NCBI GenBank assembly: GCA_029856155.1
Contig: JAHQWL010000027.1
Span: forward strand, 1 to 51,969
Source of the DNA: Promethearchaeia archaeon
Lineage (GTDB): Archaea > Asgardarchaeota > Lokiarchaeia > Sigyniarchaeales > SOKP01
DNA length: 51,969 nucleotides
Direction: 5' to 3'
A program made the translations under genes and the position numbers. How positions within the stretch are numbered: position 1 is the first letter of the stretch; the number at the start of each line of letters is the position of its first letter. The notes beneath the pieces are model-generated. The model saw only the letters and a program-made list of their open reading frames with translations. It ran no database searches and was not told the DNA's origin. This document shows, one piece after another, positions 8,592-49,896 of this stretch.

Positions 8592-10664
8592 GTGAAAAAC
8601 ATGAAAAATTTAAATACAAAAACGATAATGGTCATTACAATTGTCCTTACTTCAGTTTTCGCAATGCCTATGGTAGCTATGGGACAGGAAAAAGATTATG
8701 ATGACGCTTTTAATTTCAACCAACTTGATGTAGGTATTTTCCAAGGTTTTTTGGGGGGTTTTGGGGGAATATTTAGCAATAACTTAGGTTATGCAGGGGG
8801 TATCCTTGGAACTATTTTTGAAACTTTATTGCAGCAAGGATTAGATCTTGATTCTTATCAGATATTAGATAATGTGTATGTTTTAAATGCAACTACGACT
8901 AGCACAATATCAGATGAGAAAACATTTACACCTGAAAATAATAAAGAATATTATCTTCTTCCTAATGAGTATGAAGTTCCAGAAGATCAAGGATTTGCAT
9001 ATTGTGAAATTACGAAATCTGGAAGCTATGTATACGATCTAGAAGTAGGCGCAGCAGTAACCCTTATTATATGGGATAGCGACAAATCTTTTATTAATGC
9101 TATAACTAGATTACTCGGTGTTGTCAGAAGGATTATAGGACTACAATCTTTGGGAAGACAAATAACTCTAGATCTTATTCGGGAAGGAATTAGCGCAATT
9201 ACATGGTTTTTAATTCATATAAATGATATATTCACTGGAGACGAATTATTTGTACTAAATCCTATCACATGGCAGAAATTAAACATCACTCCATTAATTA
9301 CTTATGATATTGATAAAGATTGGTACTATTCTGGTCCTGATTATAAAATCGGTGGTGAAGATGATTCTCGTGTAAATACCACAGTAAGAGCAGATTGGAA
9401 CAGTACCGCCCTAACAAGACAAGATAGTTACATGCAATGGTTATTGAGACCAACCGCACCAGGAGACTTAGCCGAAACTATTTGGACTCAATTTTCTTTT
9501 GATTTAATCCAGCTATGGATGAAAAATTTCGAACTCCATATTGATGTAGCTGAGATTCTTAATGCTGCAACAGGCGCTTCAGGATCTCCAGAACAAGCAA
9601 TTGCTAGTGCCTTTGGTGGATGTGATATTGAGTTCTATTTATTTACACATCATCTAGCGGGGGCTTTCTTGTACGATGATGCAAACGCAGATGAGCAAAT
9701 TTCTGCTAACTATGTAAATGTGACCAATAATCTCGGTGAAACAGTATTGGATGCCGCAGGTGATCCTATCCAAATCCCTGATCATTCTGAACTCACTCAT
9801 GGAATAATTTTAGGCACTGTTGGGAATTTTGATTTTAATACGCCTAAACCTAATGTAGGAGAAAAAAGCATTTCCTGGGGTATAACATTAAATAATGTTA
9901 ATGTATCGGCTGTACCCATGTTTGTTGATTTAGACTCATATTTAAAAGCCCCAGAGGAAGAACTTGCTTCTATTTACTTTGGTTTTACCTTTGAACCAAC
10001 AGTAGATGATGAATTAGGGGTTGCAAAAGGTGTGGTTAAATTAGATCAAGAATTTGCTCCTTGGAACGACGGAAATGGGCCTAACTCTATTATCCTAGGA
10101 TTAGATTTGGCAATTATTTATGTATCAACTGTGTTGCATTTCCATCTAAATGTGGCTTTGGAAGGAGAACCAGATAAACCAGAAGAGATTTTGGATCCAA
10201 CCGAAGATTATTATGCAGAAAGTCATGAAGTAAAAGTAGGAAATTATATTGGCCGACACACAAGCCAAAAGTTAGATTTTGTCGATATTGCAGGGCTCTA
10301 TTATCAACTTGGGACGGATAAATCAACAGCACCTCAATATAATGCAAGTACAAGTATTTTACCGCTTGAGTTATGGAGATGGGAAATGGAGAGACATGAC
10401 ACATTTGAATTAGGAGATGGTACCGAATCACAAACCTTTGCTTCAGATATAAGGATTTCAACAGAATTCAATGTAATGGTATATGCTGTCTGTTATCCTG
10501 AATTTAACGGAACTGGTTTAGGTATTTTCCACGATCCTACCTTCTCAGTTTACATGGTGTTCGAAAGTGAAGGATTCTGGGCTTTAATTGTTTTGATTGC
10601 TGGAGTTGGATTAGTTGGCGTTGCAACCATATTAATCAAGCGAAGAAAGGATCAAAGATTTTAA
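8592..10664 (+). CDS. Secreted, C-terminally anchored acidic cell-surface protein
   Basis: N-terminal signal peptide (..TIMVITIVLTSVFAMPMVAMG), acidic beta-rich body, HDPTF motif, C-terminal TM plus KRRK tail. Confidence 0.75.
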   Translation: MKNMKNLNTKTIMVITIVLTSVFAMPMVAMGQEKDYDDAFNFNQLDVGIFQGFLGGFGGIFSNNLGYAGGILGTIFETLLQQGLDLDSYQILDNVYVLNATTTSTISDEKTFTPENNKEYYLLPNEYEVPEDQGFAYCEITKSGSYVYDLEVGAAVTLIIWDSDKSFINAITRLLGVVRRIIGLQSLGRQITLDLIREGISAITWFLIHINDIFTGDELFVLNPITWQKLNITPLITYDIDKDWYYSGPDYKIGGEDDSRVNTTVRADWNSTALTRQDSYMQWLLRPTAPGDLAETIWTQFSFDLIQLWMKNFELHIDVAEILNAATGASGSPEQAIASAFGGCDIEFYLFTHHLAGAFLYDDANADEQISANYVNVTNNLGETVLDAAGDPIQIPDHSELTHGIILGTVGNFDFNTPKPNVGEKSISWGITLNNVNVSAVPMFVDLDSYLKAPEEELASIYFGFTFEPTVDDELGVAKGVVKLDQEFAPWNDGNGPNSIILGLDLAIIYVSTVLHFHLNVALEGEPDKPEEILDPTEDYYAESHEVKVGNYIGRHTSQKLDFVDIAGLYYQLGTDKSTAPQYNASTSILPLELWRWEMERHDTFELGDGTESQTFASDIRISTEFNVMVYAVCYPEFNGTGLGIFHDPTFSVYMVFESEGFWALIVLIAGVGLVGVATILIKRRKDQRF

Positions 10665-36227: not shown

Positions 36228-37430
36228 ATGAATGATATAAAAGTAGATTGGAAAGGACATGTGGAAAAGTATCAAACGGCGATGGTGGAATTGAATCTTG
36301 ATTTTTGCATTCTTACTCGTGTTAAATCGATTACGTATTTAGCTGGGTGTTTTGTGCCTTGGAAAAGTTATATATTTCTCCCTAAAGAAGGTGCTGGAGA
36401 CCCAATATTATATACTGTATTATTAGATACAGAAAGGGTAAAAGCAGAAGGACACTTAGAAGATGTTCAGGGTTGGGGTCCTCTTAAAGGGTTCTTTATT
36501 GAGAAAAAGATCCAAAAAGCAGCTAAAAAAACTGGGTTATATACATCAAAAGGTTCTCCACCTAGAATTGGGGTCGAATTAGGGCTCGATATCTGTGTGA
36601 CTGGTCAAATGTTATCCCACTCGGAAGCTCTATTATTAGAACAAGTGTTTCCTGGGTGTGAATTGGTAGATTTTAATGAAAAAACCGAAAGAATACAATT
36701 TATTAAAGAACCAGAAGAAATAGCGTTATTAAGAAAAGCAAGTGAAATCACCGATATAGGACAAGTTACTGTAAAGAAAGAATTAGAAGAACGCCCTTCG
36801 GGAAAAATCTTTACTGAAAATGAGATAGCTGGAATTGGAACATTAGCAATGAGAAAAGCTGGGAGTAATTATGAATGGACATTTACTGGAAACCAAGAAA
36901 TCGGTTCAGGATACCGCGCTAGTTGGACTTTTAATGGCTGTACACCTGCAACAAATAAAAAAGTAAATGAGAGTGAATCCCTATTAGTAGATCTTCATAG
37001 TGAGTATGGATGTTATCTTGGAGATTTAAGTCATAATTACATTCTTGGCAAATGTCCTTCAGAATTGAAAGCTTTTAATGATGTGTATGAGCAACTTTGC
37101 TATACTCTTATCGATAATATGTATCCTGGAAATTCATTTGAAGAGTGTTATCAAGAAGTAAGAAAGGTCGCCGAAAAAGCAGGATATGAAAATGATTTAT
37201 TTTTTGGGATAGGTCATGGAATAGGTTGTATTGGGAATGAGTCATGGCCGGTTATAGTTCCTGGAAAAGAATGGGGTCCAATGATATTTGAGGAGAACAT
37301 GGTTGAAATCGCAGCAATAGTATTTAATCGTCCTGGCCTTGGAGGTCTTCGACTTGAGTCACCTACCCTTGTAACAAGGAAAGGTGCGGAAGTGCTCCCT
37401 AAAACGCCATTTGAAGTCGATTATGTATAG
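36228..37430 (+). CDS. M24 (pita-bread fold) Xaa-Pro peptidase/creatinase-like hydrolase
   Basis: IKEPEEI..LRKA, VD...Y.GD, GHGIG, G.RLES. Confidence 0.85.
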   Translation: MNDIKVDWKGHVEKYQTAMVELNLDFCILTRVKSITYLAGCFVPWKSYIFLPKEGAGDPILYTVLLDTERVKAEGHLEDVQGWGPLKGFFIEKKIQKAAKKTGLYTSKGSPPRIGVELGLDICVTGQMLSHSEALLLEQVFPGCELVDFNEKTERIQFIKEPEEIALLRKASEITDIGQVTVKKELEERPSGKIFTENEIAGIGTLAMRKAGSNYEWTFTGNQEIGSGYRASWTFNGCTPATNKKVNESESLLVDLHSEYGCYLGDLSHNYILGKCPSELKAFNDVYEQLCYTLIDNMYPGNSFEECYQEVRKVAEKAGYENDLFFGIGHGIGCIGNESWPVIVPGKEWGPMIFEENMVEIAAIVFNRPGLGGLRLESPTLVTRKGAEVLPKTPFEVDYV

Positions 37431-37524
37431 ATTTGATTAATTTATCTTTAGATTAATCAAATATAATTTATTTTAAAAAAAATATATCTTTTGTTATAGA
37501 ATATCTAAATCTCAAAAAGAAAAC
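37353..37524 (+). repeat. Direct-repeat unit 1 (intact M24 3' end + hairpin spacer + decayed M20 start)
   Basis: Aligns to 40039-40211. The M20-start relic (atagaatatctaaatctcaaaaagaaaac) begins 66 nt after the stop, the same spacing as the real M20 ATG after the relic stop. Confidence 0.8.
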
Positions 37525-37530
37525 ATTTTT

Positions 37531-38427
37531 TTAATTTAATAACTCTAAAAATCTTTTTAAAATAGCATGATATTCATCTCTTTTGAGTAAAGTGCCCATA
37601 TGCCCAACATTCTCAAATATGATTTCTTCCACATTGGGATATTGGCTTCTTAATTCCTCATGATAAGGAAATCCATTATCATCATTCGCTGTAAATATTA
37701 GAACTTTACCATCCCACCCGTCATAATTTTCTATATTGTATTTTTCACCATTGAATTCACCTGTAAGAATCGATTGGCATAGTATAACACTCTTCTCTAC
37801 TTTACTAAACCTTTCTTTTACAAATGCTAATGTAAATTTTAACTCCTCCCGAATTTCAGGAGTCATTTCTTTTTCTTCATTTGCTAATTTCAAAAGTTTT
37901 TTTGACATCAACTTCTTTAATAGAAAAGCCGGTATAAATTTAAGCAGCTTATTAGTTTTTTTAAAATCGTTTACCCATTCATTTTTTGGAGGATAGCTAT
38001 TGATAAGAATAAGTGCTTCTATATTTTTATAATTTCTATGGAAATATGGTTGAGCCATAAAACTTCCAAAACTCTGACCTATTAATATATATCTCTTCAC
38101 ATTTTCTTTTTTTAGAATTTCATTTACACCTTCACTAAATTCATCCAAACTTTCAAAATTCGTAATTGATGGGGCGATAACTCTATAATTTTTTTCAAAA
38201 AATCGTATCGCTTGAAAATTACCCTCAGCATTTCCAAGTGCTCCATGAAAGGTAAGAACTGTTTTTTTACCAGTTCCACAGCTAATATACTCTATTTCCT
38301 TATTTCTGAACATTATCATTTTTGTAGGATGATTTCTTCTATATTCCACAAGGCCTTGATAAAGTTCCGGAGCTATATCCTTATAAAATTTGGAATTACT
38401 TTGATTTTTCATCTCTAATAGCCTCAA
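37531..38427 (-). CDS. Alpha/beta hydrolase; probable start at 38412
   Basis: FHG, GQSFG nucleophile elbow, ANDD, VGH. Confidence 0.88.
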   Translation of the reverse strand: MRLLEMKNQSNSKFYKDIAPELYQGLVEYRRNHPTKMIMFRNKEIEYISCGTGKKTVLTFHGALGNAEGNFQAIRFFEKNYRVIAPSITNFESLDEFSEGVNEILKKENVKRYILIGQSFGSFMAQPYFHRNYKNIEALILINSYPPKNEWVNDFKKTNKLLKFIPAFLLKKLMSKKLLKLANEEKEMTPEIREELKFTLAFVKERFSKVEKSVILCQSILTGEFNGEKYNIENYDGWDGKVLIFTANDDNGFPYHEELRSQYPNVEEIIFENVGHMGTLLKRDEYHAILKRFLELLN

Positions 38428-38636
38428 TTTTTACTTTACCTAAAATTTTTTTATCGCTATTTAGGCATAACTAATATTGATATATAAATATTTTTATTCT
38501 TTTATGGAATTTGAGTAATCTATTCAAATTTTGATATTAGGTTATGTTTAAAAATATCTAAATTAAATAATTTAAGATTTCTTCAATTAATGTATATATT
38601 TTGTATATAAACTTAGTAGGTCTAATATTATAAATT

Positions 38637-38705
38637 TCAAGTAAATATGCTGAAATATTTCCTAAAACATTATTTGAAGTTGACTATGTCTAGTTTTCAT
38701 TAAAC
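38637..38705 (+). pseudogene. Direct-repeat unit 2: relic of the M24 gene 3' end
   Basis: Translates SSKYAEIFPKTLFEVDYV* versus real TRKGAEVLPKTPFEVDYV*, followed by tttcattaaac as in unit 4. Confidence 0.8.
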
Positions 38706-38769
38706 CGTTTTAAGTTATTCTTTTTAATTAGCCTAATTCTATTTGAATTTGAAGTATTGGAAATGAGAT

Positions 38770-39840
38770 TTAAGATTTTTTAGATTTTTTCATTTTAATT
38801 TCTGTTTTTTCAAGGTCAAGTTTGTGTTTGTTTGAGTATATTTTTACTGGTTTAGATTTATCAATTGGTCCATAACATGCCCAACACGCATTTTCCAAAG
38901 TAGTTAAAGCTTGAGCACATTTTTGGCAATATAAAGCACCACAAGCTGGACAAATAAAGGTAAATCCTTCTGCTGTACCTTTACATACTAAACAGATCTT
39001 TCTTTCCTTATGAAAAACGATGTCTTCTTCGGTTATGTTTTCTGGGCGCATCTCAAAAAGTCTAAATAAATCTCCCTCAATTTTAATTTCTTTTTCTTCA
39101 GGTTTTTCTTTTTTAACTTTTATACGTTCTTCTCTTAAGGCAAAATACCACATCCAAGCAGTGATTAAAAATAGAAATCTAAAGAAAAATTTCATTATTA
39201 CTAATGTAATAATAAATTCTATTATTGCAGAAGTGGTTGCTAGAATTTGACCATAACTTAGTAAGAAATATTTCCTCCTTATGATTCCCTCAGATTGCAT
39301 TCCTTTATAAAAAGCCCCAAAACCGAGAAAAATAAATTGTTGAAGTATGAAGAATAAGACTATAATAATGAAAACGTTGATATTGGCTGAAAAAATTAAA
39401 AATTCTTCCTGGGCAGTAGATAAATTAGAGATATTCCAATATTTTCCAGGATCTTGGATATATATTATTGAGAGTATGATTCCACATAATATATTCACTA
39501 TTATTATGATCTGCTTTGTTTTTTTAGAAAGCCATAAATCAATCCCAAAATAAATAGTAGTTATATTAATTAAAAATACAGAAAGACCAATTAGAACTAA
39601 AGGAATACCATATAAATCTATCATATTTTCTCCTTTTATAAGATAATAGAAGAAATTCACAGTATACCCTAAATACAGGAGTGCTACTGAACATAACATA
39701 ATACCGGCAATTCCTAATCGTCTAGTATGAGTCTTTTTAGATTTAAATAGGAAAAAAAAACCAAAAATCATCTCGAAGAAAAACACACTGAGAAAAGATA
39801 TTGCATTCAATAATCCAATAATATTAACCATTTCTTTCAC
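38770..39840 (-). CDS. 7TM membrane protein with C-terminal 8-Cys (C4C4 RING-like) zinc finger
   Basis: ~7 TM helices, charged linker, CLVC-x9-CPAC-x4-CQKC-x10-CWAC. Confidence 0.75.
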   Translation of the reverse strand: MKEMVNIIGLLNAISFLSVFFFEMIFGFFFLFKSKKTHTRRLGIAGIMLCSVALLYLGYTVNFFYYLIKGENMIDLYGIPLVLIGLSVFLINITTIYFGIDLWLSKKTKQIIIIVNILCGIILSIIYIQDPGKYWNISNLSTAQEEFLIFSANINVFIIIVLFFILQQFIFLGFGAFYKGMQSEGIIRRKYFLLSYGQILATTSAIIEFIITLVIMKFFFRFLFLITAWMWYFALREERIKVKKEKPEEKEIKIEGDLFRLFEMRPENITEEDIVFHKERKICLVCKGTAEGFTFICPACGALYCQKCAQALTTLENACWACYGPIDKSKPVKIYSNKHKLDLEKTEIKMKKSKKS

Positions 39841-39901
39841 AGATTGTATTTTATTTCCATATTTTTCTACTGGTTTTCAATTAATGCATGAACTTTTCAA
39901 T

Positions 39902-40039
39902 TAGATATTATTCAAATTTGTATAGTCAATATATATAATTTACTATAACATTTACCTAAATATCATAGAAACATCTAAGTTCATAAAAGATAAACTAAAT
40001 TATATTCTAAAGATGTTAGTTCAAATCCCATCAGAAAAC
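39902..40039 (+). pseudogene. Direct-repeat unit 3: spacer + relic of the M20 gene 5' end
   Basis: 39965-40039 translates IETSKFIKDKLNYILKMLVQIPSEN versus real MEITNSLKEKLLYILKNLIQIPTEN; offset 217 nt. Confidence 0.82.
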
Positions 40040-40256
40040 TTGAGTCTTCTACCCTTGTTACAAGCAAATGTGCTGAAGTCCTCCCCAAAACTCCGTTCGA
40101 AGATGATTATGTCTAGATTTGATTGATATTTCATTAAACTAGTCAAATTTAATTTATTTTAGTACATTTTTTTCTAATATTATGGAAATAACTAATTCGT
40201 TAAAAGAAAAATTGCTCTATATTTTGAAGAATTTAATTCAGATTCCTACTGAGAAT
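40039..40256 (+). repeat. Direct-repeat unit 4: relic M24 3' end (40039-40116) + spacer + intact M20 start
   Basis: LESSTLVTSKCAEVLPKTPFEDDYV* versus LESPTLVTRKGAEVLPKTPFEVDYV*; 64/78 nt identical to 37353-37430. Confidence 0.9.
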
Positions 40257-41324
40257 CCACCTGGAAAAACCGAAGAAGTGGTTAATTTCTTGGTTAAGGA
40301 AGTTTTCAAAGAAGAAGAAGGTTTCCGTAATAAAATTATTACTCATATGAAAAACGGTGTTAAACTCCATAATTTAGTATCAAAAATTGGTTCAGGAAAA
40401 AAGAAGATATTATTATCCGGACATTTTGATGTGGTACCCGTTGGAGATCAAACCAAATGGTCTTATCCTCCATTTTCTGCTAAAGTTGTGGATAATAGAG
40501 TATATGGTCGAGGATCTGCTGACATGAAAGGAGGAATAACGTCAATAATAGGAGTAATGAAGTTATTAGAGTCAAACAGCCATTTTATGGAAAATTATGA
40601 GCTTATTTTCCTAGGTTCTGCTGACGAAGAAGCAGGTATGACTGGCTCTGAGTTATTATCGAAGAAAGAATTTATCAATAATGCTGAATTAATAATTATA
40701 GCTGAACCTACTAATTTAGACATTGGTGTTGCTGAAAAAGGTGTATTATGGGCGACTATACGGGTTATTGGAAAGTCAGCTCATGGATCTATGCCTCAAG
40801 AGGGACATAATGCGATAGAAGGAATCTTTAAAATTATTCCTAAAATAAATAATTGCTTAGAAAATAAATCAAATAAAATTCTTGGAAGATCCACTATAAA
40901 TATTGGAAAAATTCATGGTGGTACAAAAATTAACATTGTCCCTGATTATACCGAATTAGAAATTGATTTTAGATTAATCCCCGAACAAGAACATGAAAAA
41001 GTAATAGATAATTTGAGAGAAATTGAATTAGAGCCTTATTCTATTGATGTTGAAATTACAAACTCATTACACTCTTTATTAACTGACACAAATCATCCAT
41101 TCGTCCAAAATTTGAAAAATATAACGAATTCAGAATTTATTGGTTTATCTTATGCCACTGATGCTTGTAAATATATAAGTCCTACAAATTTTATTCCCTT
41201 TGTTATATTTGGTCCAGGGGATCCAAATAATGTTCATAAGCCAAATGAATGGGTACAATTAGAACAAGTATTCCAAACAACAGAATTATTAACCGAAGCG
41301 CTTATAAAAACTTATCTCAAATAG
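40182..41324 (+). CDS. M20 metallopeptidase (ArgE/DapE family)
   Basis: GHFDVVP, GRGSADMKGG, ADEE, AEP, G..AHGS.P, H..NE. Confidence 0.93.
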   Translation: MEITNSLKEKLLYILKNLIQIPTENPPGKTEEVVNFLVKEVFKEEEGFRNKIITHMKNGVKLHNLVSKIGSGKKKILLSGHFDVVPVGDQTKWSYPPFSAKVVDNRVYGRGSADMKGGITSIIGVMKLLESNSHFMENYELIFLGSADEEAGMTGSELLSKKEFINNAELIIIAEPTNLDIGVAEKGVLWATIRVIGKSAHGSMPQEGHNAIEGIFKIIPKINNCLENKSNKILGRSTINIGKIHGGTKINIVPDYTELEIDFRLIPEQEHEKVIDNLREIELEPYSIDVEITNSLHSLLTDTNHPFVQNLKNITNSEFIGLSYATDACKYISPTNFIPFVIFGPGDPNNVHKPNEWVQLEQVFQTTELLTEALIKTYLK

Positions 41325-41466
41325 AATTTTTAATCAATAATGAGTATTAATTCAGATTTCAAAAGCGATTCGAGTATCATTCTTTATAAATAATAAAAGA
41401 TGTTTTTATAATTCTTAAATTAATAAAGAGCTTATATAAAGAAAATTGAAATGAGTGAATTAAATC

Positions 41467-42240
41467 ATGACTAAATTAAATTTTGAAAAAGATGATGTAT
41501 TAGGTATAATAACTTTTGTGGACAAACCGATGAATTTAATAGATTCGGATTTCATAAAGGAATTAGAAGTAATTTTAGATAAATTAGAGAATGAAGAAAT
41601 AAGAGCTTTACTCTTTAAGGCAGATGAAAATAATTTTTCAGCTGGAGCAAATGTATCGTTTTTTCAGAACTCAAATGAGGATTCTACAAGAAAAATATTA
41701 GAAGTGTTTTTAAGTGCTATAAATCGAATAGAACGATTGCCATATCCAACAATGGCTGCTGTGAAGGGTATGTGTATTGGAGGGGGTTTTGAATTAGCAT
41801 TAGCTTGTGATTATATTTGGGCAAGTGAAAATGCACAATTTGCGGCAGCTGAAGTATTAATAGGAATTGTACCTTTAGGGGGTGGGGTTCAGAGACTCGC
41901 TCAGAGATGCGGTGCTGCAAGAGCTAAAGAGATTACACTAAGCGGTCGTTTTATTAAACCTGAAAAGTTAGAAAGATGGAATGTTATAAATAGAGTTTTA
42001 CCAGAGCAAGAACTTATTGAAAAAGCTATTAAATTTATGAAAATTCAATCAAACGGTCCAACAATTGCTTTTGATACAATAAAAAGATTACTAAGAGAAT
42101 ATTATGATAAAGGTTTAGAAAAATCAGATAAATTATTAGTAGATGTAGTTCCTAAGCTTTTTGAGACAGAGGATATTAAAATAGGCATTGAATCTTTTAA
42201 GAAGAGAGGACCGGGGAAAGCTATATTTAAAGGTAAATAA
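41467..42240 (+). CDS. Enoyl-CoA hydratase/isomerase family
   Basis: FSAGAN, CIGGGFELALACD, E..IGIVP.GGG.QRL. Confidence 0.93.
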   Translation: MTKLNFEKDDVLGIITFVDKPMNLIDSDFIKELEVILDKLENEEIRALLFKADENNFSAGANVSFFQNSNEDSTRKILEVFLSAINRIERLPYPTMAAVKGMCIGGGFELALACDYIWASENAQFAAAEVLIGIVPLGGGVQRLAQRCGAARAKEITLSGRFIKPEKLERWNVINRVLPEQELIEKAIKFMKIQSNGPTIAFDTIKRLLREYYDKGLEKSDKLLVDVVPKLFETEDIKIGIESFKKRGPGKAIFKGK

Positions 42241-42306
42241 TCTTATTATTATTATCTTTATTAGAATTTGATATATGTAATTCATTTGATTATAAAGTAA
42301 TAATTT

Positions 42307-43458
42307 CTATAATTTAAGAACAAATTTCTCAATTCTGTTCATTGCTTCCTTAAGCTTTTCTATTTCAGTAGCGTATGATATTCTTATCATATTATCTGAA
42401 AATGACCCAAAAATGTTTCCAGGTACGATGGCTACTGCTTGTTCTTTCATAATTCTCTTTGAAAATTGGGGGCCACTCAACTTGAATTTTTCTGTTGATG
42501 GCATCATATAAAATGATCCTTGTGGTTTTACTAAGTCAAATCCAATTTCTTTTAGTCTATGGTAAACTAAATTTCGTCTATCATCAAAACTTTTCAAAAT
42601 ATTCTCGAAAAAACCTGTGCCCATTTTTAATGCTTCAATAAAACCATATTGTGCAGCATGATTAGTTCCTGCAACTGTATATTGATGAAATTTTTCCATC
42701 AAATTAATTATTTCTTTTGAAGCGACTACATACCCAATTCTAAATCCTGTTGCAGAATATAATTTTGACATTGCATTCACGGTAACAGTTCTTTCAAACA
42801 TACCATTTAAAGAAGCTGGACTTACATGTTTAAATCCATCATAAACGTAATTTTCATAGACTTCATCTGTTATTAAATATAGATCATTTTCAATAATAAT
42901 ATCAACAATTTCGTTCAATTCTTTTGGTGTTAGAGCATGACCAGTAGGATTATTGGGAGTATTAATCAACATTGCTTTTGTTTTAGGGTTGATTGCATTT
43001 CTTATTCCTTCAATATTAAGACTAAAATCCTTGTTTCGTTCAACTTCTATTACTTTAACACCAAAAAATAACGCGCAATAAAAGTAAGAAACAAAATTCG
43101 GTGAAGAAATAATCAATTCATCTCCAGGATTAAAGAGTGAAGCAAATGCTAAAGTAACAGCTTGACTAGCTCCATTTGTAATAATTGCATTTTCTTTCCA
43201 ATTTGAATCTATCTTATTTTTCCTTCGCACTTTTTCTTCAATCAACTCTAATAATTCCGGAACACCTCTTGTAGGAGCATACATAGTAACTTTTTTTTTT
43301 AAGGCGTCAATATTTCCTTGTATTACTGGTTCTGGAGTGGTAAAATCTGGTTGACCAATACCTAAACTAATTACATCTGAACGCTCCGAAGCAAGATCAA
43401 ATAACTCTCTAATTGCTGATTTTGGAGCTTTAGATACTCTATAGGAAGTGTCTTTCAT
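42307..43458 (-). CDS. Class I/II PLP-dependent aminotransferase (AspC-like)
   Basis: GQPDF, NTPNNPTG, DEVY, SKLYSATGFRIG. Confidence 0.93.
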   Translation of the reverse strand: MKDTSYRVSKAPKSAIRELFDLASERSDVISLGIGQPDFTTPEPVIQGNIDALKKKVTMYAPTRGVPELLELIEEKVRRKNKIDSNWKENAIITNGASQAVTLAFASLFNPGDELIISSPNFVSYFYCALFFGVKVIEVERNKDFSLNIEGIRNAINPKTKAMLINTPNNPTGHALTPKELNEIVDIIIENDLYLITDEVYENYVYDGFKHVSPASLNGMFERTVTVNAMSKLYSATGFRIGYVVASKEIINLMEKFHQYTVAGTNHAAQYGFIEALKMGTGFFENILKSFDDRRNLVYHRLKEIGFDLVKPQGSFYMMPSTEKFKLSGPQFSKRIMKEQAVAIVPGNIFGSFSDNMIRISYATEIEKLKEAMNRIEKFVLKL

Positions 43459-43546
43459 GATTAATTTTCTTTATAGTGATATATTAAAAAGTCTGCTTGT
43501 TAATATGCTGATACAAAAAAGAGTTTTTTGAGGTTATTAAAATTTT

Positions 43547-44101
43547 TTAAATATTAACCCCATGATCACTTAAAATTTGATGTACTAAGAGAGAAAAAGC
43601 TTCTTCAATATTTTCTCCAAGTTTTGCGCTTGTTTCAATAAAATGACTAGCTTTAATTTTTGTCGCTAATTCTTTTCCTCGTTCTGTAGCTATTACTCTC
43701 TGATCTTTTAAATCACTTTTATTCCCTATTAAGATGAATGCTCCTTTCTTTTTTACATGTTTTTTAAAGTCTCTTAACCATTTATTACTAATATTATCTA
43801 ATGTATTATAGCGCGTTACATCATAAACGAGTAGAGCGCCCTGGCACCCTTGGAAATACATACTACGAACAACTTGATATTTTTCTTGACCCGCTAAATC
43901 CCACATAATCAATCTAACTCTTGCATTATCAAGATTTACATCTTTTCGTACAATGTTAGCTCCTAATGTAGGTTTATAATCTTCTTGGAATGACTCTTCT
44001 ACAAATTGGCTAATTAATGAAGTTTTGCCCACTGCTGCATCTCCTAAGATAGTTATTTTAAAAACGAATTCACGTAATTCACTAGTTTCTTCTATTGTCA
44101 T
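43547..44101 (-). CDS. Rab-like small GTPase
   Basis: GDAAVGKT, PTLG, WDLAGQE, NKSD, TSAK. Confidence 0.95.
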   Translation of the reverse strand: MTIEETSELREFVFKITILGDAAVGKTSLISQFVEESFQEDYKPTLGANIVRKDVNLDNARVRLIMWDLAGQEKYQVVRSMYFQGCQGALLVYDVTRYNTLDNISNKWLRDFKKHVKKKGAFILIGNKSDLKDQRVIATERGKELATKIKASHFIETSAKLGENIEEAFSLLVHQILSDHGVNI

Positions 44102-44222
44102 TATGCAATTTATTATTTTGTTGTAAGTATATTTAATACTTTATTTCAAAAATGATATATGATATTTTTTTATTACAAATATAAGGATTTCTTCTATAAA
44201 TTATATAATTTTCGTCACAAGA

Positions 44223-44786
44223 TTATTTAATACTTTTCTTAATTTTTAACTTAATAATAAAACTATTGTGGGTTGGATCGTTTACATCTTCTTTTTCACT
44301 TTTACAAATAACCATTTGTTCTGAAGGTAAAGATTTCTGTAAAGAATGAACTAAAAACCCTATAAATAAGTCACAAGGAACTCCAATCTCAGAACAGAAG
44401 ATGCATCTATCAACTTGAACAGTTATTTCATTTTTGCTATTATCCAAAATCTCAACTTTCCAATCTGTAATAATTGAAGAATTCATTTCCTCAACAACTT
44501 CTTCGAATTCTTTACCAAAAGGGAACATATAAAATGCCATTTTTTTTCCAATTTCGTAAAGAAGCTTCGAAGAATCATATAATAAACAATTTTGAGCCGA
44601 AATGATTTTTTTAAAAGAAAAGTAATCTAATGTGTCGTTAGGATCTTTATCTTTTATATCTATCATTTCTGCTTCTCTTAATATTGATTTCATTCCATCA
44701 TAATCAAGGATATCATGATACGCTTGGAGAAGCGCTATGACAACTTTATTCTTTACAAATCCTTTATAATCTCCAATCATTTCCAT
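44223..44786 (-). CDS. V4R-like protein
   Basis: GMKSILREA, LYEIGKK, RCIFC...PCDLFIGFL. Confidence 0.65.
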   Translation of the reverse strand: MEMIGDYKGFVKNKVVIALLQAYHDILDYDGMKSILREAEMIDIKDKDPNDTLDYFSFKKIISAQNCLLYDSSKLLYEIGKKMAFYMFPFGKEFEEVVEEMNSSIITDWKVEILDNSKNEITVQVDRCIFCSEIGVPCDLFIGFLVHSLQKSLPSEQMVICKSEKEDVNDPTHNSFIIKLKIKKSIK

Positions 44787-44807
44787 TAAATTTGATAATT
44801 TACCTTT

Positions 44808-45389
44808 TTAATCTATGTTATTATTTAAGTAATCTAATTTGACTTTAGTTCCACTCTTATTTAAGATATGCAAAACTAACTTTTTAAAAGCCATCTCAAC
44901 ATTTTCTCCATATTTAGCACTTGTTTCAACAAAATCAGCTGCATTAATCTTTTGAGATAATAAGTTTCCTTCCTCAGATGATACTTTAATTGAGTCCTTC
45001 AAATCTAATTTATTACCAATTAAAATATAGACTCCATTGGGTTTACTAAATTTTATAAAATCCTCAAGCCATTTTGACGTTATATGCTCGTATGTTGAAT
45101 AACGCGTTTTATCGTAAACAAATAAGGCACCTGAACATCCTTGAAAAAACATCTTACGTGTTAACTCATATTTAGCTTGTCCAGCGATATCCCATAAGAG
45201 AAGACGAATATCAGAATTTATCTCTTCAATATATATATCTTTAGTGACAATATTAACCCCAAGTGTTGGTTGGTAATTCTCGTTAAATGAATCAGTGATA
45301 TATTTATCAATTAAGGAGGTTTTACCTACTGCGGGATCTCCTAATATTGCCAACTTTAATGCCCATTCTCTCTTTTTCTCTTCTCCCAT
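44808..45389 (-). CDS. Rab-like small GTPase
   Basis: GDPAVGKT, PTLG, WDIAGQ, NKLD, TSAK. Confidence 0.95.
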   Translation of the reverse strand: MGEEKKREWALKLAILGDPAVGKTSLIDKYITDSFNENYQPTLGVNIVTKDIYIEEINSDIRLLLWDIAGQAKYELTRKMFFQGCSGALFVYDKTRYSTYEHITSKWLEDFIKFSKPNGVYILIGNKLDLKDSIKVSSEEGNLLSQKINAADFVETSAKYGENVEMAFKKLVLHILNKSGTKVKLDYLNNNID

Positions 45390-45400
45390 CGATAATCAAC

Positions 45401-45835
45401 CTATTCTCCTATGTTTAAAAGTGATAAATCAAATTGAGGATCATTAGCACGATCTAATTTTTTATCTGTTTCAAATATAGCGACTTCCCCGGTAACAGAA
45501 ACGATACTTGGTTTACTTAAATGCCCACCTATTACACTATAATCTCTTCTTCCTAAAGATACATGTAAGTGAATAATTGGCTCATCGTCCTTATAAGTTA
45601 AATTTCCCATACATGTTATCAATTCAACATTTTCGATATAGGTTTCCATTTTATAGTTTTTAGTATCAATTTCAAAATACCCTAGTGTAAATTTTTTCAA
45701 TGCTCCAATACAGTTGATGAATCCAGATTTAATATTATGTTTTTTCACCATCTTAATAATAGAATCCATTAAATCCTCATCGGGTTCTACTTTTCCTATA
45801 ATTATTCGTTCACTTCTAGTTTCAATACTCTTCAA
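45401..45835 (-). CDS. PPC/DUF296-domain protein
   Basis: CIGAL, ELI..MGN, IHLHVSLG...GGHL, VTGEV. Confidence 0.88.
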   Translation of the reverse strand: MKSIETRSERIIIGKVEPDEDLMDSIIKMVKKHNIKSGFINCIGALKKFTLGYFEIDTKNYKMETYIENVELITCMGNLTYKDDEPIIHLHVSLGRRDYSVIGGHLSKPSIVSVTGEVAIFETDKKLDRANDPQFDLSLLNIGE

Positions 45836-45862
45836 TATAACCCCCTTAAATGGTTTAATTAT

Positions 45863-46402
45863 TTAAGTTTCGATCATTAACTTTTCCAAAACCTTATTCA
45901 CTAATTTCTTGAATGCCTCTTCTACGTTATCTCCGTATTTAGCACTAGTTTCCACAAAATCAGCTGCATTTATTTTTTCCGCAAGCTTTTTTCCCATCTC
46001 GGTCGATACCACTCTTGAACTTTCTAAATCGATCTTATTTCCAATCAAAACATATGATAAATCTTGTTCGCCATATTCATTTGCATCTATCAACCATTTT
46101 GATACTACATTTCGAAAAGATTCATCCCTAGTCACATCGTAAACAAATAGAGCTCCTACAACTCCTTGAAAAAACATTTTTCGCGAAACAACATATTTTT
46201 CTTGACCAGCAATATCCCAAATAACTAACCGGATTTGAGCATCTAATTCATCAATTTCTTTAACAACTATATTTACGCCAAGAGTAGGTTTATAATCTTC
46301 TTTAAAACGGTGGTGAGCATACATATCAATCAAGGATGTTTTACCAACCGCAGCATCACCTAATAAAACCACCTTTAAAACGATAATTTTTTCTCCAGAC
46401 AT
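45863..46402 (-). CDS. Rab-like small GTPase
   Basis: GDAAVGKT, PTLG, WDIAGQE, NKID, TSAK. Confidence 0.95.
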   Translation of the reverse strand: MSGEKIIVLKVVLLGDAAVGKTSLIDMYAHHRFKEDYKPTLGVNIVVKEIDELDAQIRLVIWDIAGQEKYVVSRKMFFQGVVGALFVYDVTRDESFRNVVSKWLIDANEYGEQDLSYVLIGNKIDLESSRVVSTEMGKKLAEKINAADFVETSAKYGDNVEEAFKKLVNKVLEKLMIET

Positions 46403-46580
46403 CCTTACTCGATAAATCCTTTCTAATATGTTATAGTTAAGATAGATTCATTTCTTTTATATTTGAGTTAATGGAGAGATTTTTATGTCTTTGCTACGAA
46501 TTATAATTTCAACTATAATTCGAAAAATTAATTATAATGAACTATTATAACCATTATTAGTAGAAATAACAAGAAAAATT

Positions 46581-47540
46581 ATGCCAGAAAAAGTCACAAT
46601 ATCGGATATAGAATTGATTTTATCAGAACCCGCTCAAGTTGATATGCAATGGGTTGGTAATGATGATTTAATAAAGCAACTAAAAGCAGCGTGGATGATT
46701 GTTGACAAAGAGGATTTACCTCTTAATCCAAGAATACTAGGAAAGCCAGGTGTTGGTAAGACAACACTTGCTTATGCTGCTGGAAGAAGATTAGAAAAAG
46801 ATGTATATATGTTTCAATGTACAATGGATACGCGCCCTGAAGATTTGCTTATTAGCCCTGTTATTGCTTCAGATACTAAAATAGCCTATGTCGCGAGTTC
46901 TTTAGTATCTGCTATGGTAAAAGGAGGAGTATGTTTACTGGATGAGGGAAATAGGATGAGTGAAAAAAGTTGGGCGTCATTAGCACCATTGATGGATAAG
47001 AGACGCTATGTTGAGAGTATTATAGCAGGTATAAGGATTTACGCTCATCCAGATTTTCGGTTATGTGTCACTATGAATGCTGATTCTAGCACTTATGAAA
47101 TTCCAGAATATATTCAATCTCGTTTACAACCTAAAATTTATATAGAATTTCCAAACAAAATTGATGAGTTAAAAATATTAAAGTACAATTTACCATTTGC
47201 CTCAGAGGAAATATTAGAATATTGTGTAAATTTCCTTCAAAATGCTCATATACATGACGAACCTTATACTGTGAGAGATGGTATTAATATTTTAAGATAT
47301 TATATTAAGTCGAGAATGATGAAGAAAGAAAACCAAGATATAATAGAAAAAAGCACATTAGAAAATGCTGTGATTCAAATATTAGAAGAAGCCGCTTTAA
47401 AATATTTACCGGGAAATTATGAAGAATTTATGAAAAAGCAGAAAGAATCAATCTCTTTTAGGTTATTGAAAGATATTGAGGAAGTTAATGATTATTATGA
47501 TAAATTTGTAAAAAAATCTGATAAAGATTCTAATATTTAG
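46581..47540 (+). CDS. MoxR/CbbQ-NirQ-type AAA+ ATPase
   Basis: GKPGVGKT, LLDEGNR, HPDFRL..TMN, SRL. Confidence 0.88.
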   Translation: MPEKVTISDIELILSEPAQVDMQWVGNDDLIKQLKAAWMIVDKEDLPLNPRILGKPGVGKTTLAYAAGRRLEKDVYMFQCTMDTRPEDLLISPVIASDTKIAYVASSLVSAMVKGGVCLLDEGNRMSEKSWASLAPLMDKRRYVESIIAGIRIYAHPDFRLCVTMNADSSTYEIPEYIQSRLQPKIYIEFPNKIDELKILKYNLPFASEEILEYCVNFLQNAHIHDEPYTVRDGINILRYYIKSRMMKKENQDIIEKSTLENAVIQILEEAALKYLPGNYEEFMKKQKESISFRLLKDIEEVNDYYDKFVKKSDKDSNI

Positions 47541-47809
47541 AGTTTGTTTTATCATATTTCAAGAAATTAAAAAAGAGTTTGTTATTGAATAAGTTTTTGA
47601 TTGATTTAGATACTTCTTAATAAATCTCTATCTTCCCTATCGTTTTAAGAGTCGTACAGTAATATCTAACAGCACAAGTATATTTAACACTATCGATACT
47701 ACACTTGTAATTAAAAATGAACTTGTCTAAATATATTAATTTAGTAAATATTAAATTCATGTAAAATATCAAAACTAACATAAAATCTGGTTTTATTAAA
47801 AAAATAGTT
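47496..47809 (+). repeat. Direct-repeat copy A: intact MoxR 3' end + internally deleted relic of the 49255..49692 gene and its promoter
   Basis: 47496-47728 aligns to 49117-49346. The minus strand reads ..SFLITSVVSIVLNILVLLDITVRLLKR* versus ..PFVITCVSYIVLSILTLLGIIIRLLKR*. 47776-47809 matches 49756-49789 at 27/34. Confidence 0.88.
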
Positions 47810-47882
47810 TTATGTTTAACTTACTATTTTATTTTTCTTTTTTTTTAGATACTAAAAGTGTATGGAGATGAGGATTAGAACA

Positions 47883-48908
47883 TTATATTTGGAAAAACAT
47901 TAATTTTAAGACTACGTAAAATCCATAAAAACCTATTAATAGTGCAGCTTCCCACTGTTTAAGCTTTTTTTGAGACCACAAGAAAAAGAATGCAATTGAT
48001 AGGCCAATAAGAAGCATTGGTATATCGAATAATAATAATATTGGGGTTACGTTAAAATCAATTATTAATACACCTGATCCAGTTGCTAGAAGTATATCGC
48101 AGATATTAGAGCCTAAGATATCACCTATAGCAAGTCCACACGATCTCCGTCGTATAGCTGTTAAATCTGCTATAAGTTCGGGTAAACTCGTGCCTACCCC
48201 TACAATCAATATTCCAATTACATTTTCTGGAATATATAATTCTTTTGCTAAACTATGTGCTGATAGAAGTGTAATTTCAGCTCCAACTAATAAAATAAAA
48301 AGCCCTATTAAAAAAATGCCGATCTCTTTTCGGAGTGATGATGTTTTTAAGGGTGTTTCGATGATTTCAAGATCTTGAGGTTGTAATCTTTCTTTTTCCA
48401 AATTTTGGATATCCATTCTTGCTTTTGCTATTTTTTTTTCGCTCCAAATTATTATTAATAAGTATGCTATGTATATTATTATCATCATGATACCCTCTAT
48501 GCGAGATAAAACACCATCAATGGCAAATATTAAAAATATGAAGACTGAAAAAAACAACATTGGTCCTTCTCGTCTTAACTCCCATTTGCTAACCATAATA
48601 GCTTGGCTAACACCCAATATTCCCAAAATAAGAGTAATTTGGGTAAGAAATGATCCAATTTTATTTCCGATTACAATTCCATCTATAGTTGTATCTATTC
48701 CTGTTAATTTGTCGATTCCTCCCATGATGCTTACTGAGATTTCAGGTAAACTAGTTCCAATCGCTAAAATAGTGAGCCCCACTAATAAATGACTTATGCC
48801 AAAACGGTTAGCTATTCTTTCAAGTCCTATTATAGCAAATTTAGCGCCAAAATATAAGCCGATAAAACCTAATAGAAGAAATCCAATAATTAAAGTTAAT
48901 GTTAGCAA
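47883..48908 (-). CDS. Ca2+/cation antiporter (CaCA, YrbG/NCX_Mj-like)
   Basis: Two alpha repeats GTSLPE, ~10 TM, GDILGSN. Confidence 0.93.
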   Translation of the reverse strand: MLTLTLIIGFLLLGFIGLYFGAKFAIIGLERIANRFGISHLLVGLTILAIGTSLPEISVSIMGGIDKLTGIDTTIDGIVIGNKIGSFLTQITLILGILGVSQAIMVSKWELRREGPMLFFSVFIFLIFAIDGVLSRIEGIMMIIIYIAYLLIIIWSEKKIAKARMDIQNLEKERLQPQDLEIIETPLKTSSLRKEIGIFLIGLFILLVGAEITLLSAHSLAKELYIPENVIGILIVGVGTSLPELIADLTAIRRRSCGLAIGDILGSNICDILLATGSGVLIIDFNVTPILLLFDIPMLLIGLSIAFFFLWSQKKLKQWEAALLIGFYGFYVVLKLMFFQI

Positions 48909-49116
48909 CTTAGCTCCAATTTTTTTTGAAAGACTCCTATAAAGATAAAATTATTAAAGACAACAATTTTAAGAGTAAAATCTATATAAAGTTATCCATT
49001 CTTTATCCAGAAGTAATCCATATTATGGACTTAAACTATACATCTCCAATTTTATTCTGGATAAATATTCATTATGTTTTTATAGGTTTAATTCTCTTGA
49101 ATTGTATATTTGAAAT

Positions 49117-49346
49117 AATGCAAAATATGTAAAAAAATCCGATGTGGATTCATATATTTAGAATTTTATTTATCATATTTCAAGAAATTAAAAAAAAATT
49201 TGTTATTAATTTGGTTTTTGATTAATATAGATACTTAATAAATCTACATCTTCTCTATCGTTTTAAGAGTCGTATAATTATACCTAATAATGTAAGTATG
49301 CTTAATACTATATATGATACACATGTAATTACAAATGGACCTATCT
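49117..49346 (+). repeat. Direct-repeat copy B: relic MoxR 3' end + spacer + intact end of the 145-aa gene
   Basis: 49117-49161 translates NAKYVKKSDVDSYI* versus real YDKFVKKSDKDSNI*; the spacer tatcatatttcaagaaattaaaaaa is shared. Confidence 0.88.
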
Positions 49347-49692
49347 GTTCTCCTAGAGCTGACACAGCAGCAAATGCTTGTAATACTGTAGGCAACCAAA
49401 TTGATATAATAATAATATAAATAACCACTAGTCCAATGCCTATTCGATCTATTAATTTATATCGAGGGCTATTGACTTCCATTACTCCTATTAAGGTAAG
49501 TGTTTCAGCAAAAAACCAGTTAATAATTGGTATCATTAAAGCTAGAGCAAACGGAATTATATATTCAGTAGTAATATTTGCAAGAAGACTAGGACTCAAA
49601 CCGATCATAATAACTAACATCATTACTGATAACACTGTTATTAAACCGCTACATACTAAAATCAGAATATTACCTAATGGTGCAAATTTCAT
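49255..49692 (-). CDS. Four-TM membrane protein of unknown function
   Basis: 145 aa with four hydrophobic helices. Confidence 0.7.
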   Translation of the reverse strand: MKFAPLGNILILVCSGLITVLSVMMLVIMIGLSPSLLANITTEYIIPFALALMIPIINWFFAETLTLIGVMEVNSPRYKLIDRIGIGLVVIYIIIISIWLPTVLQAFAAVSALGEQIGPFVITCVSYIVLSILTLLGIIIRLLKR

Positions 49693-49896
49693 TGTTTAAC
49701 ACTTTTTAATTTGGATTTGAAATGTTTAAGTTATTTTTAGAATGATTTAAATCTTTAACATAAAAGTAAGTTTTAATAAAAAATTAATTAGAAACAGATT
49801 TTAATATCTAAAATTATTTATTCTAATTCAGAAAACTGAGATTTTTTTCAATTTATTATTATATTTTAAGGAAATATTTACTTAAATTAGAGCCAG

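Follow-up and report, generated by a model that had tools for sequence, protein, structure and literature searches.

Two loci in a 51,969-nt contig of a metagenome-derived Promethearchaeia assembly (JAHQWL010000027.1; contig C28 of the 4.1-Mb assembly G000, hereafter "the window") carry single accessory genes that are bracketed by direct repeats made of the ends of the neighboring genes. Locus 1 lies between an M24 and an M20 peptidase gene and holds an alpha/beta hydrolase gene and a gene for a seven-transmembrane protein with a RING-like finger (7TM-RING); locus 2 lies between a MoxR-type ATPase gene and the small gene orf145 and holds a CaCA exchanger gene. Compared across 54 species-level genomes of the genus (G000 and 53 congeners), the repeats are best explained, with a probability of about 0.6, as scars of recombinase-independent insertion with long target duplication and subsequent exchange between relatives, with no dedicated cassette machine. 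A preliminary description of the window had instead proposed an undescribed, integron-like system of small DNA circles that enter by crossover. Its view of real, recombinase-free gene-gain sites, of cargo moving between species and of traveling gene-end fragments holds, but circle crossover as the entry to new loci does not.

The repeats stand at both sites where they had been claimed and lie far above chance in a whole-genome self search: at locus 2, positions 47494-47728 pair with 49115-49346 (80% over 235 nt, E 1e-51), and at locus 1, positions 37352-37523 pair with 40038-40210 (77% over 173 nt, E 2e-29). The locus 2 unit comprises the MoxR end (47 nt), the spacer, and ~30 codons from the end of orf145, which is convergent to MoxR. 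It had been taken for a gene end plus its spacer, which is right for those two parts, but the unit also enters the second flanking gene, i.e., the last ~30 codons of orf145 and, at locus 1, the first 43 to 65 nt of M20. Copy A, on the MoxR side of the CaCA cassette, carries 26 relic-specific changes (8 in the spacer and 18 in the orf145 end) versus 4 in the live copy, and its orf145 relic explains a spurious 54-amino-acid (aa) open reading frame (ORF) at 47617-47781. The coordinates of all features are collected in Table 1.

Empty and differently filled alleles, which the preliminary description had proposed to look for in relatives, were found at both loci. In most relatives, the stop of MoxR and the start of the gene at 49897 overlap, and the two genes are adjacent or overlapping in G009, G017, and G006; orf145 is itself an earlier insertion between them. 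It stands alone between MoxR and the downstream gene in G018 and G046, which represent the empty CaCA target, and the stretch that is doubled in G000 is single copy in both (L032 7954-8176 in G018). Other genes occupy the MoxR junction in two further congeners. G015 has a B12-binding corrinoid protein gene and a URO-D-like methyltransferase gene next to a relic of the downstream gene's first 57 codons (L022:6300-8742), and G005 has two PEMT-like methyltransferase genes (L027:4271-5771).

Whether a gene-end relic arose in place or came in with foreign DNA can be read from its codons, since an in-place duplicate decays evenly over codon positions, whereas alleles differ mainly at synonymous sites. 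Polarized with G018, the relic-specific changes at locus 2 are spread 2:3:2 over the codon positions of the MoxR relic and 6:5:5 over those of the orf145 relic, in total 23 changes (8:8:7) versus 6 in the live copies. The ratio of nonsynonymous to synonymous changes is 21:10, with ~2.1:1 expected for one neutral branch, and the divergence of the repeats relative to the synonymous divergence (dS) of the cassette fits in situ duplication for G000, though not decisively; three- and four-taxon site patterns (3:1:2) comprise too few informative sites to position the relic phylogenetically. The substitution pattern of the locus 2 repeat is thus that of an in situ target duplication followed by neutral decay.

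The cargo of locus 2 is found elsewhere in the genus. Positions 47797-49091 are 90.7% identical at the nucleotide level to G020:C66 and 87.8% identical to G002:C2, and both of these loci are unrelated to MoxR. The G020 CaCA gene sits between 182-nt direct repeats formed by the 3'-terminal 55 codons of another gene, which in G000 is intact and present once (C22:4791-5714, with the repeat stretch at C22:5556-5715). The CaCA gene of G002 sits between 87-nt repeats of a spacer. The repeat pairs of the three species (240, 182, and 87 nt) are mutually unrelated, the three copies end differently (left ends by ~300 nt, right ends by at least 45 nt), and the common cassette contains no piece of the MoxR or orf145 target. 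The dS of CaCA among the three species is 0.23 to 0.36 (0.29 between the window and G020, 0.36 between the window and G002), and that of neighboring core genes is 0.74 (TauE, G000-G020) and 1.57 (cdhA, G000-G002). Given this low dS, we conclude that CaCA moved between species and came to occupy three sites, with a locus-specific long duplication in each case. For this gene, the donor, the empty target, and the product are all available.

These data bear directly on the proposal that small circles, each carrying a cargo gene and a core-gene terminus, integrate by a single Campbell-type crossover into an integron-like platform as the sole mechanism. The G020 CaCA unit does include a traveling gene end, viz., an undecayed 84-codon stretch from the 3' terminus of a cdhA-like gene (omega 0.04 to 0.08), and in G002 the cdhA-like gene lies 1.2 kb upstream of CaCA. 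However, a circle that enters through homology permits no first insertion at a new locus, and homologous single crossover fails for new loci because CaCA has three unrelated repeat pairs and variable ends and brings no MoxR or orf145 piece. The locus 2 relics, moreover, decayed neutrally from the host's own sequence, and a crossover within 40 to 240 nt at ~80% identity would be inefficient. As a sole mechanism, circle integration is therefore unlikely, although part of the evidence from locus 1 is in its favor.

Locus 1 is an array of three repeat copies, which we mapped onto the template T, the uninterrupted M24-M20 junction of G001 (M24 stop at ~T214, M20 start at T282). The copy 1 side of the window is collinear with T6-324 (live M24 end, spacer, and 43 nt of M20), and from copy 3 onward the window is collinear with G001 (83%). 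The middle copy is weaker against the window's own copy (38635-38714, 76% over 66 nt) than against the M24 end and spacer of G021, with which it shares 83% over 143 nt (L035 9810-9668, E 1.6e-38). Its right half is 84% identical to G021 L035 9670-9552 and matches M20 residues 2-53 by tblastn (E 0.001). The relics had been described as in frame, and they are: M24 residues 375-400 recur at 40036-40113 (81% aa identity) and residues 382-400 at 38634-38690 (63%). Where the end of copy 2 (T346, position 40029) meets the start of copy 3 (T138, position 40038), only 8 nt intervene, i.e., this is a duplication joint without cargo.

The hydrolase cassette has a history of its own. The stretch 37500-38638 is 89 to 91.5% identical at the nucleotide level to G018, with flanks at 75 to 80%, and hydrolase dS is 0.22 to 0.26 versus 1.0 to 1.8 for M24, M20, the aminotransferase gene, and the upstream gene g33819; the high-identity tract takes in 38 nt of the M20-start relic. 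By these distances, the cassette was transferred horizontally, and to the same site. The spacer linked to the hydrolase gene is of an "alpha" type (that of G001 and G014) in G000 and of a "beta" type in G021 and G018; in G000, the beta spacer stands on the other side of the hydrolase gene, as copy 2. Because the alpha and beta spacers differ in type and side, the locus 1 array is a mosaic of gene-end alleles from several lineages, as expected if incoming DNA brings a gene end with it, which the preliminary description had assumed. The layout M24-repeat-hydrolase-repeat-M20 recurs in the independent assemblies of G021 and G018.

Integration of circles would account for several of these features. 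The 38-nt M20 start travels with the hydrolase gene, the order beta spacer-hydrolase in G021 and G018 and hydrolase-beta spacer in G000 are circular permutations of each other, many relic/live pairs differ as alleles do, and the hydrolase gene occupies the same site in lineages whose flanks differ by a dS of >1. A linear fragment entering by double crossover accounts for the same data. Several recombination routes fit the array, and none is singled out.

The preliminary description had all three cargo genes placed by one architecture, but the 7TM-RING gene splits copy 2 and shares only TTT(T) at its joints, and therefore made no repeat of its own. Its family is large and fast-evolving, with 17 matches in G000 and many members with internal stops in relatives, and the top match of the window's protein across the 53 congeners is just 40% identical.

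The site behind M24, whose orthologues are 80 to 87% identical (aa) in 11 congeners, is filled variably. It is empty in G015, G003, G005, and G010, where M20 and the enoyl-CoA hydratase gene are missing and the aminotransferase gene follows directly; M20 alone follows in G002, G017, and G011, and the hydrolase gene in G014, G021, and G018. The simple M24-M20 junction, i.e., the single-copy target of locus 1, exists in G001, G017, G011, and G002. In G009, M24 is followed by a histidine kinase and a response regulator gene and then by a 60-codon M24 relic. A 5-kb insert with an MFS transporter block cuts M24 of G018 at residue ~327 (L030 and L032), with an undecayed 65-codon M24 end beyond it. 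M24 has an internal deletion in G001 (L033; residues 1-77 and 336-400 remain), and only residues 324-400 are retained in G006 (L031). Since M24 is broken in G018, G001, and G006, this anchor gene is dispensable.

The architecture is not confined to the window. The genome-wide search of gene termini that had been proposed was run on the G000 genome with the termini of ~3,400 ORFs as queries (150 nt each, extended by 60 nt of flank), and it revealed the same architecture at ~25 loci. Intergenic copies of termini within 0.3 to 8 kb were direct in 55 cases and inverted in 8, versus 5 direct and 4 inverted at >20 kb on the same contig, and ~1 local match is expected by chance, as derived from 325 intergenic matches on other contigs. 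Coding relics lay outward of the terminus at a ratio of 27:3 for 3' ends and 8:2 for 5' ends. The high-scoring segment pairs measured 55 to 194 nt (median, 107), with a median identity of 82% and a median spacing of 2.1 kb. Duplications are longer than 30 bp and vary by event (~240, 182, 87, and 186 nt in the events studied). The cargo at other G000 loci includes DUF998, hydrolase, oxidoreductase, ABC ATPase, and URO-D genes, and transporters, methyltransferases, and kinases occur among all inserts. At C21, a second locus that was followed across the genus, five congeners have a filled site, and G045 and G005 have an empty one. Insertion with gene-end scars is a regular route of gene gain in this genome.

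The least probable explanation is that nothing was inserted at all and that the repeats are what ordinary duplication (tandem or segmental) and deletion of resident genes left behind, chance similarities of AT-rich DNA, or assembly chimeras. Tandem paralogues are indeed abundant and explain most local direct repeats in the genome, the joint at 40029/40038 is a plain duplication joint, and the metagenome assembly comprises 104 contigs with 5.7% contamination. Nonetheless, the bracketed genes are unrelated to the genes that flank them and are missing from the same site in relatives, and the cargo resides elsewhere in other species at a dS far below that of core genes. Chance is opposed by E values of 1e-29 to 1e-51, and chimeras are opposed by repeats of ~80% identity, which share no assembly k-mers, and by the recurrence of the layout in the independent assemblies of G021 and G018.

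A dedicated machinery was searched for at several levels. The window had been described as free of integrases and transposases, and the contig indeed has no match to tyrosine or serine recombinases, DDE transposases, or TnpB. Searches of the whole assembly (PF00589, PF00239, PF01609, and PF07282) found one tyrosine recombinase (C81), no serine recombinase (PF00239), one TnpB-like gene, and two or three DDE transposases, none of them near these loci. No integrase remnants were detected in 13 ORFs within or flanking inserts at the two loci of the window (3 in G000 and 10 in relatives) or in 20 ORFs at other G000 loci, of which 19 are cargo. No motif emerged over 35 repeat/cargo joints (at most 0.26 bit per position), and an all-against-all comparison of the repeats of 25 loci found no common sequence or palindrome, only A/T-rich chance matches. 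Terminal inverted repeats were not reported by the repeat search of the window. An element resembling a transposon or a miniature inverted-repeat transposable element was rejected, because the CaCA copies have differing ends, whereas such an element would have defined, identical termini and a short target duplication of fixed length.

It is well established that integrative elements entering the 3' end of a gene leave displaced gene-end copies and can stack. The loci might accordingly be decayed elements of this kind that have lost their integrase, or cassettes moved in trans, e.g., by the single Xer-like enzyme of the assembly, and aimed at gene 3' ends. Like elements with tyrosine integrases at the 3' ends of genes or tRNAs, the loci have displaced 3'-end copies that delimit stacked accessory blocks behind a core gene, and relics of 3' ends outnumber those of 5' ends 27:8. 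A palindrome with perfect 11-bp arms (ATTTGATTAAT ... ATTAATCAAAT) stands right after the M24 stop (37431-37462) and is degenerate in copy 3 (40117-40148). It is restricted to this spacer, is found in G001 and partly in G005, and is missing downstream of M24 in most relatives; a terminator-like hairpin is more likely than a recombination site. In contrast to integrase-borne elements, there is neither an integrase nor a remnant of one in the scanned ORFs, with a single tyrosine recombinase in the entire assembly, and there is no fixed crossover or core. Repeat lengths and boundaries differ per event (the M24 relics start at residues 324, 335, 339, and 375), 5' ends and pure spacers are duplicated as well, no motif is common to the joints or repeats of the 25 loci, and the units measure 1 to 3 kb. 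This explanation is very improbable.

Insertion with long target duplication and later exchange would proceed in two steps. In the first, which locus 2 exhibits and which we infer for the other loci, 1 to 1.4 kb of DNA from a related species would join illegitimately at an intergenic spot, with the chromosomal joints 80 to 240 bp apart inside both flanking genes, such that the stretch between them would be present on each side of the insert. This would equal a short tandem duplication with foreign DNA taken up at its new joint, possibly when sister chromosomes or multiple chromosome copies underwent template switching or end joining, and the redundant halves of the duplication would decay afterwards. 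Both neighboring genes stay whole, and such events can therefore survive in a gene-dense genome. The 7TM-RING insertion, with an overlap of 3 to 4 nt, may be the short end of the same spectrum. In the second step, for which there is partial evidence, the cassette and its gene-end remnants would spread among congeners by homologous recombination in the gene-end copies and flanks, and stacking at one site would yield arrays whose repeat copies are alleles of different lineages, as at locus 1, where the spacer is of the G021 type in copy 2 and of the G001 type in copies 1 and 3.

Several observations weigh against this reading. Copies 1 and 3 are bounded like a target-duplication pair, yet their 14 differences are allele-like (2:1:11 by codon position; nonsynonymous:synonymous, 4:10), which has a p of ~0.007 under the in situ model. 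Pooled over 30 relic/live pairs of G000 (935 codons, 53% of differences at third positions, 9 stops), omega is 0.215, versus ~0.55 expected for pure in situ duplication with neutral decay. The G020 repeat pair (synonymous dS, ~0.40) appears older than the cassette branch (~0.08) by ~1.8 standard errors. No event was caught in the act; the coding-relic repeat pairs are 72 to 92% identical, and none is demonstrably recent. Young pairs of high identity may be undercounted, because such repeats would break short-read contigs and several repeats lie at contig ends. ORFs were called by a simple longest-ORF caller, and the molecular mechanism (template switching, end joining, ploidy) we infer from the anatomy only.

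The low pooled omega means that, for many pairs, a gene end must have been imported along with the DNA or an allele must have replaced the live gene later. The loci are heterogeneous in this respect: C5, C69, and most of C100 look allelic, and C21, C54, C71, and C88 look in situ. Either both processes, in-place duplication and gene-end import, contribute, or alleles of relatives often replaced the live genes after insertion. An in-place origin of both copies from one target fits locus 2; copy 1/copy 3 and the pooled set deviate from it, and later allelic replacement could mask such an origin.

To our knowledge, the addition of single nonselfish genes to prokaryotic genomes without integrase or transposase is poorly understood, the footprint being documented mainly for bacterial restriction-modification (RM) genes, with an unknown mechanism. 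Insertion of RM units with long target duplication was reportedly described by Nobusato, Uchiyama, Ohashi, and Kobayashi in 2000 (Gene 259:99). The likeness is close, as the loci described here have no mobility gene, locus-unique repeats of variable length that are single copy at the empty site, the same unit at different loci, inserts of <20 kb, and intact neighboring genes. According to Furuta, Abe, and Kobayashi (2010), RM units of Helicobacter and other bacteria are flanked by direct repeats of tens to hundreds of base pairs without a mobility gene, and the repeats are single copy at the empty site, variable in length, and often span start or stop codons (PMC2853133). The screen of the same survey retained no archaeal case, and breakage of DNA by the cargo was suggested as the driver (PMC2853133). 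The claim of an undescribed, integron-like system was too strong, as the footprint has been published (PMC2853133) and there is no common site, motif, or dedicated enzyme. The differences from RM units concern the archaeal host and the ordinary cargo (antiporter, hydrolase, and membrane RING protein) without DNA-breaking activity; a cargo of RM or similar selfish, DNA-breaking units, which is not found at the two loci, characterizes the published examples but may not belong to the definition of the class. In addition, ~25 loci occur in 4.1 Mb, and many repeat pairs are allelic, which points to later interspecies exchange. The repeats are also older, with 72 to 92% identity versus 94 to 100% in rows of the published tables (PMC2853133). 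Since no DNA-breaking activity is encoded by the cargo, breakage by it cannot generally be the cause, which implicates replication or repair by the host. In the literature, we found no archaeal report of this footprint.

Other known routes of gene gain match less well. Integrons consist of IntI, attI, and attC and accumulate mostly single-gene cassettes, promoter bearing or promoterless, in a row; they have been reported in archaeal metagenome genomes. Our loci resemble them in that mainly single-gene cassettes gather at one site, but there is no IntI beside the arrays (the only PF00589 match is on C81), attC-like palindromes are lacking, many sites are used, and the repeats copy the local target. 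Homology-facilitated illegitimate recombination, as reportedly described by de Vries and Wackernagel in 2002 for naturally transformable bacteria, adds foreign DNA by combining one homologous anchor with one microhomology joint and needs no enzyme encoded by an element. It would account for the allelic gene-end relics and the 3- to 4-nt joint of the 7TM-RING gene; it differs in that it mostly yields target substitutions or deletions and no long duplications, and the anchor would here be merely 40 to 240 nt. We know of no such recombination in archaea of this group.

Tentatively, and with more doubt than confidence, one might go further and propose that this Asgard genus encodes a sequence-independent host pathway by which foreign or ectopic DNA is routinely captured at short tandem-duplication joints, perhaps through replication template switching or through end joining of chromosome copies. 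The duplicated gene ends would then serve as portable homology, such that single genes circulate without the enzymes of mobile elements. If true, this would be a general, as yet unnamed mode of gene gain that would help to explain why the closest prokaryotic relatives of eukaryotes have large, fluid accessory genomes. One Asgard genome and 53 congeners provide dozens of events with ordinary cargo, for several of which donor, empty target, and product can be aligned, and the gene-end scars are readable as a record of interspecies gene exchange. They offer a concrete, testable route for the heavy gene flux in Asgard genomes; the present evidence is not for a new molecular machine.

Table 1. Positions of the genes, repeat copies, and cassettes at the two loci of the window
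Feature	Position	Strand	Basis or remark
M24 (Xaa-Pro/creatinase-type) peptidase gene, locus 1 anchor	36228-37430	+	PF00557 + PF01321
Repeat copy 1: live M24 end (last 76 nt), alpha spacer with palindrome, relic of first ~43 nt of M20	37352-37537	+	T138-324
Hydrolase cassette (gene + flanks), horizontally exchanged	37500-38638	-	Identity to G018, dS
Alpha/beta hydrolase gene	37531-38427	-	PF00561
Repeat copy 2, left half: decayed M24 end (19-26 codons) + beta spacer, G021 allele	38635-38771	+	T158-237
7TM-RING gene	38770-39840	-	Weak PF13920, 19.7 bits, under the 27-bit cutoff
7TM-RING cassette, clean insertion within repeat copy 2	38772-39873	-	Flanks contiguous in G021
Repeat copy 2, right half: beta spacer + relic of first ~21 codons of M20	39874-40029	+	T278-346
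Repeat copy 3: in-frame M24-end relic (26 codons), alpha spacer, live M20 start (40182)	40038-40210	+	T138 onward
M20 peptidase + enoyl-CoA hydratase genes	40182-42240	+	Pfam; presence variable among relatives
MoxR-type AAA ATPase gene, locus 2 anchor	46581-47540	+	PF07728
Target-duplication copy A: live MoxR end (47 nt), spacer, decayed orf145 3'-end relic	47494-47735	+	
CaCA cassette: exchanger gene + own flanks	47736-49114	-	47797-49091 common to G020 and G002
CaCA Na+/Ca2+ exchanger gene	47883-48908	-	PF01699
Target-duplication copy B: decayed MoxR-end relic (15 codons), spacer, live orf145 3' end	49115-49350	+	
orf145, small membrane-like gene	49255-49692	-	No Pfam family; high-identity copies in 3/54 congeners (G000, G018, G046)

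With respect to gene content, the order from 36.2 to 43.5 kb is M24 (+), alpha/beta hydrolase (-), 7TM-RING (-), M20 (+), enoyl-CoA hydratase (+), and aminotransferase (-), and from 46.6 to 51.9 kb it is MoxR-type ATPase (+), CaCA exchanger (-), orf145 (-), and a DUF5682-like gene (+). The gene calls are in agreement with those of the preliminary description for M24, the alpha/beta hydrolase, the 7TM protein with a RING-like finger, M20, the MoxR-type AAA ATPase, and CaCA. A 34-nt match between 47776-47809 and 49756-49789, which it had considered a promoter fragment, is 79% identical, AT rich, and overlaps the cassette shared with G020; it is probably due to chance. The similarity between the C termini of the enoyl-CoA hydratase and MoxR (42096-42132 and 47489-47525) is not significant (E 0.15).

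Cassette-flanking repeats lie at the contig ends C34:1-145, C63:8-110, and G020:C66:3-184. A DDE transposase match (C54:32561-32944) is enclosed by two inverted repeats of 490 nt (72% identical; C54:31114-33858) and is probably part of an insertion sequence, of which the assembly has few. Aloposons, i.e., tRNA-targeting elements with giant genes, are unrelated to the footprint described here (PMC8813620). The array C100:1800-10250 (L081) comprises four 3'-end relics of an Lrp/AsnC gene (9772-10239, minus strand) at ~8707, 5792, 2800, and 1813, whose differences from the live end are nearly all synonymous (e.g., 8:0). Its blocks contain a HEPN-nucleotidyltransferase pair, NosD-like fragments, and two genes for PIN-domain proteins, each with a small ORF in front; among all cargo, toxin-antitoxin pairs (PIN and HEPN-MNT) are confined to this array. 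Between the two loci of the window, positions 43547-46402 hold three paralogous small GTPase-like genes (53 to 65% aa identity to each other) with interleaved small genes, the number and order of which vary among congeners, and one of these paralogues is missing or truncated in G015, G010, and G021.

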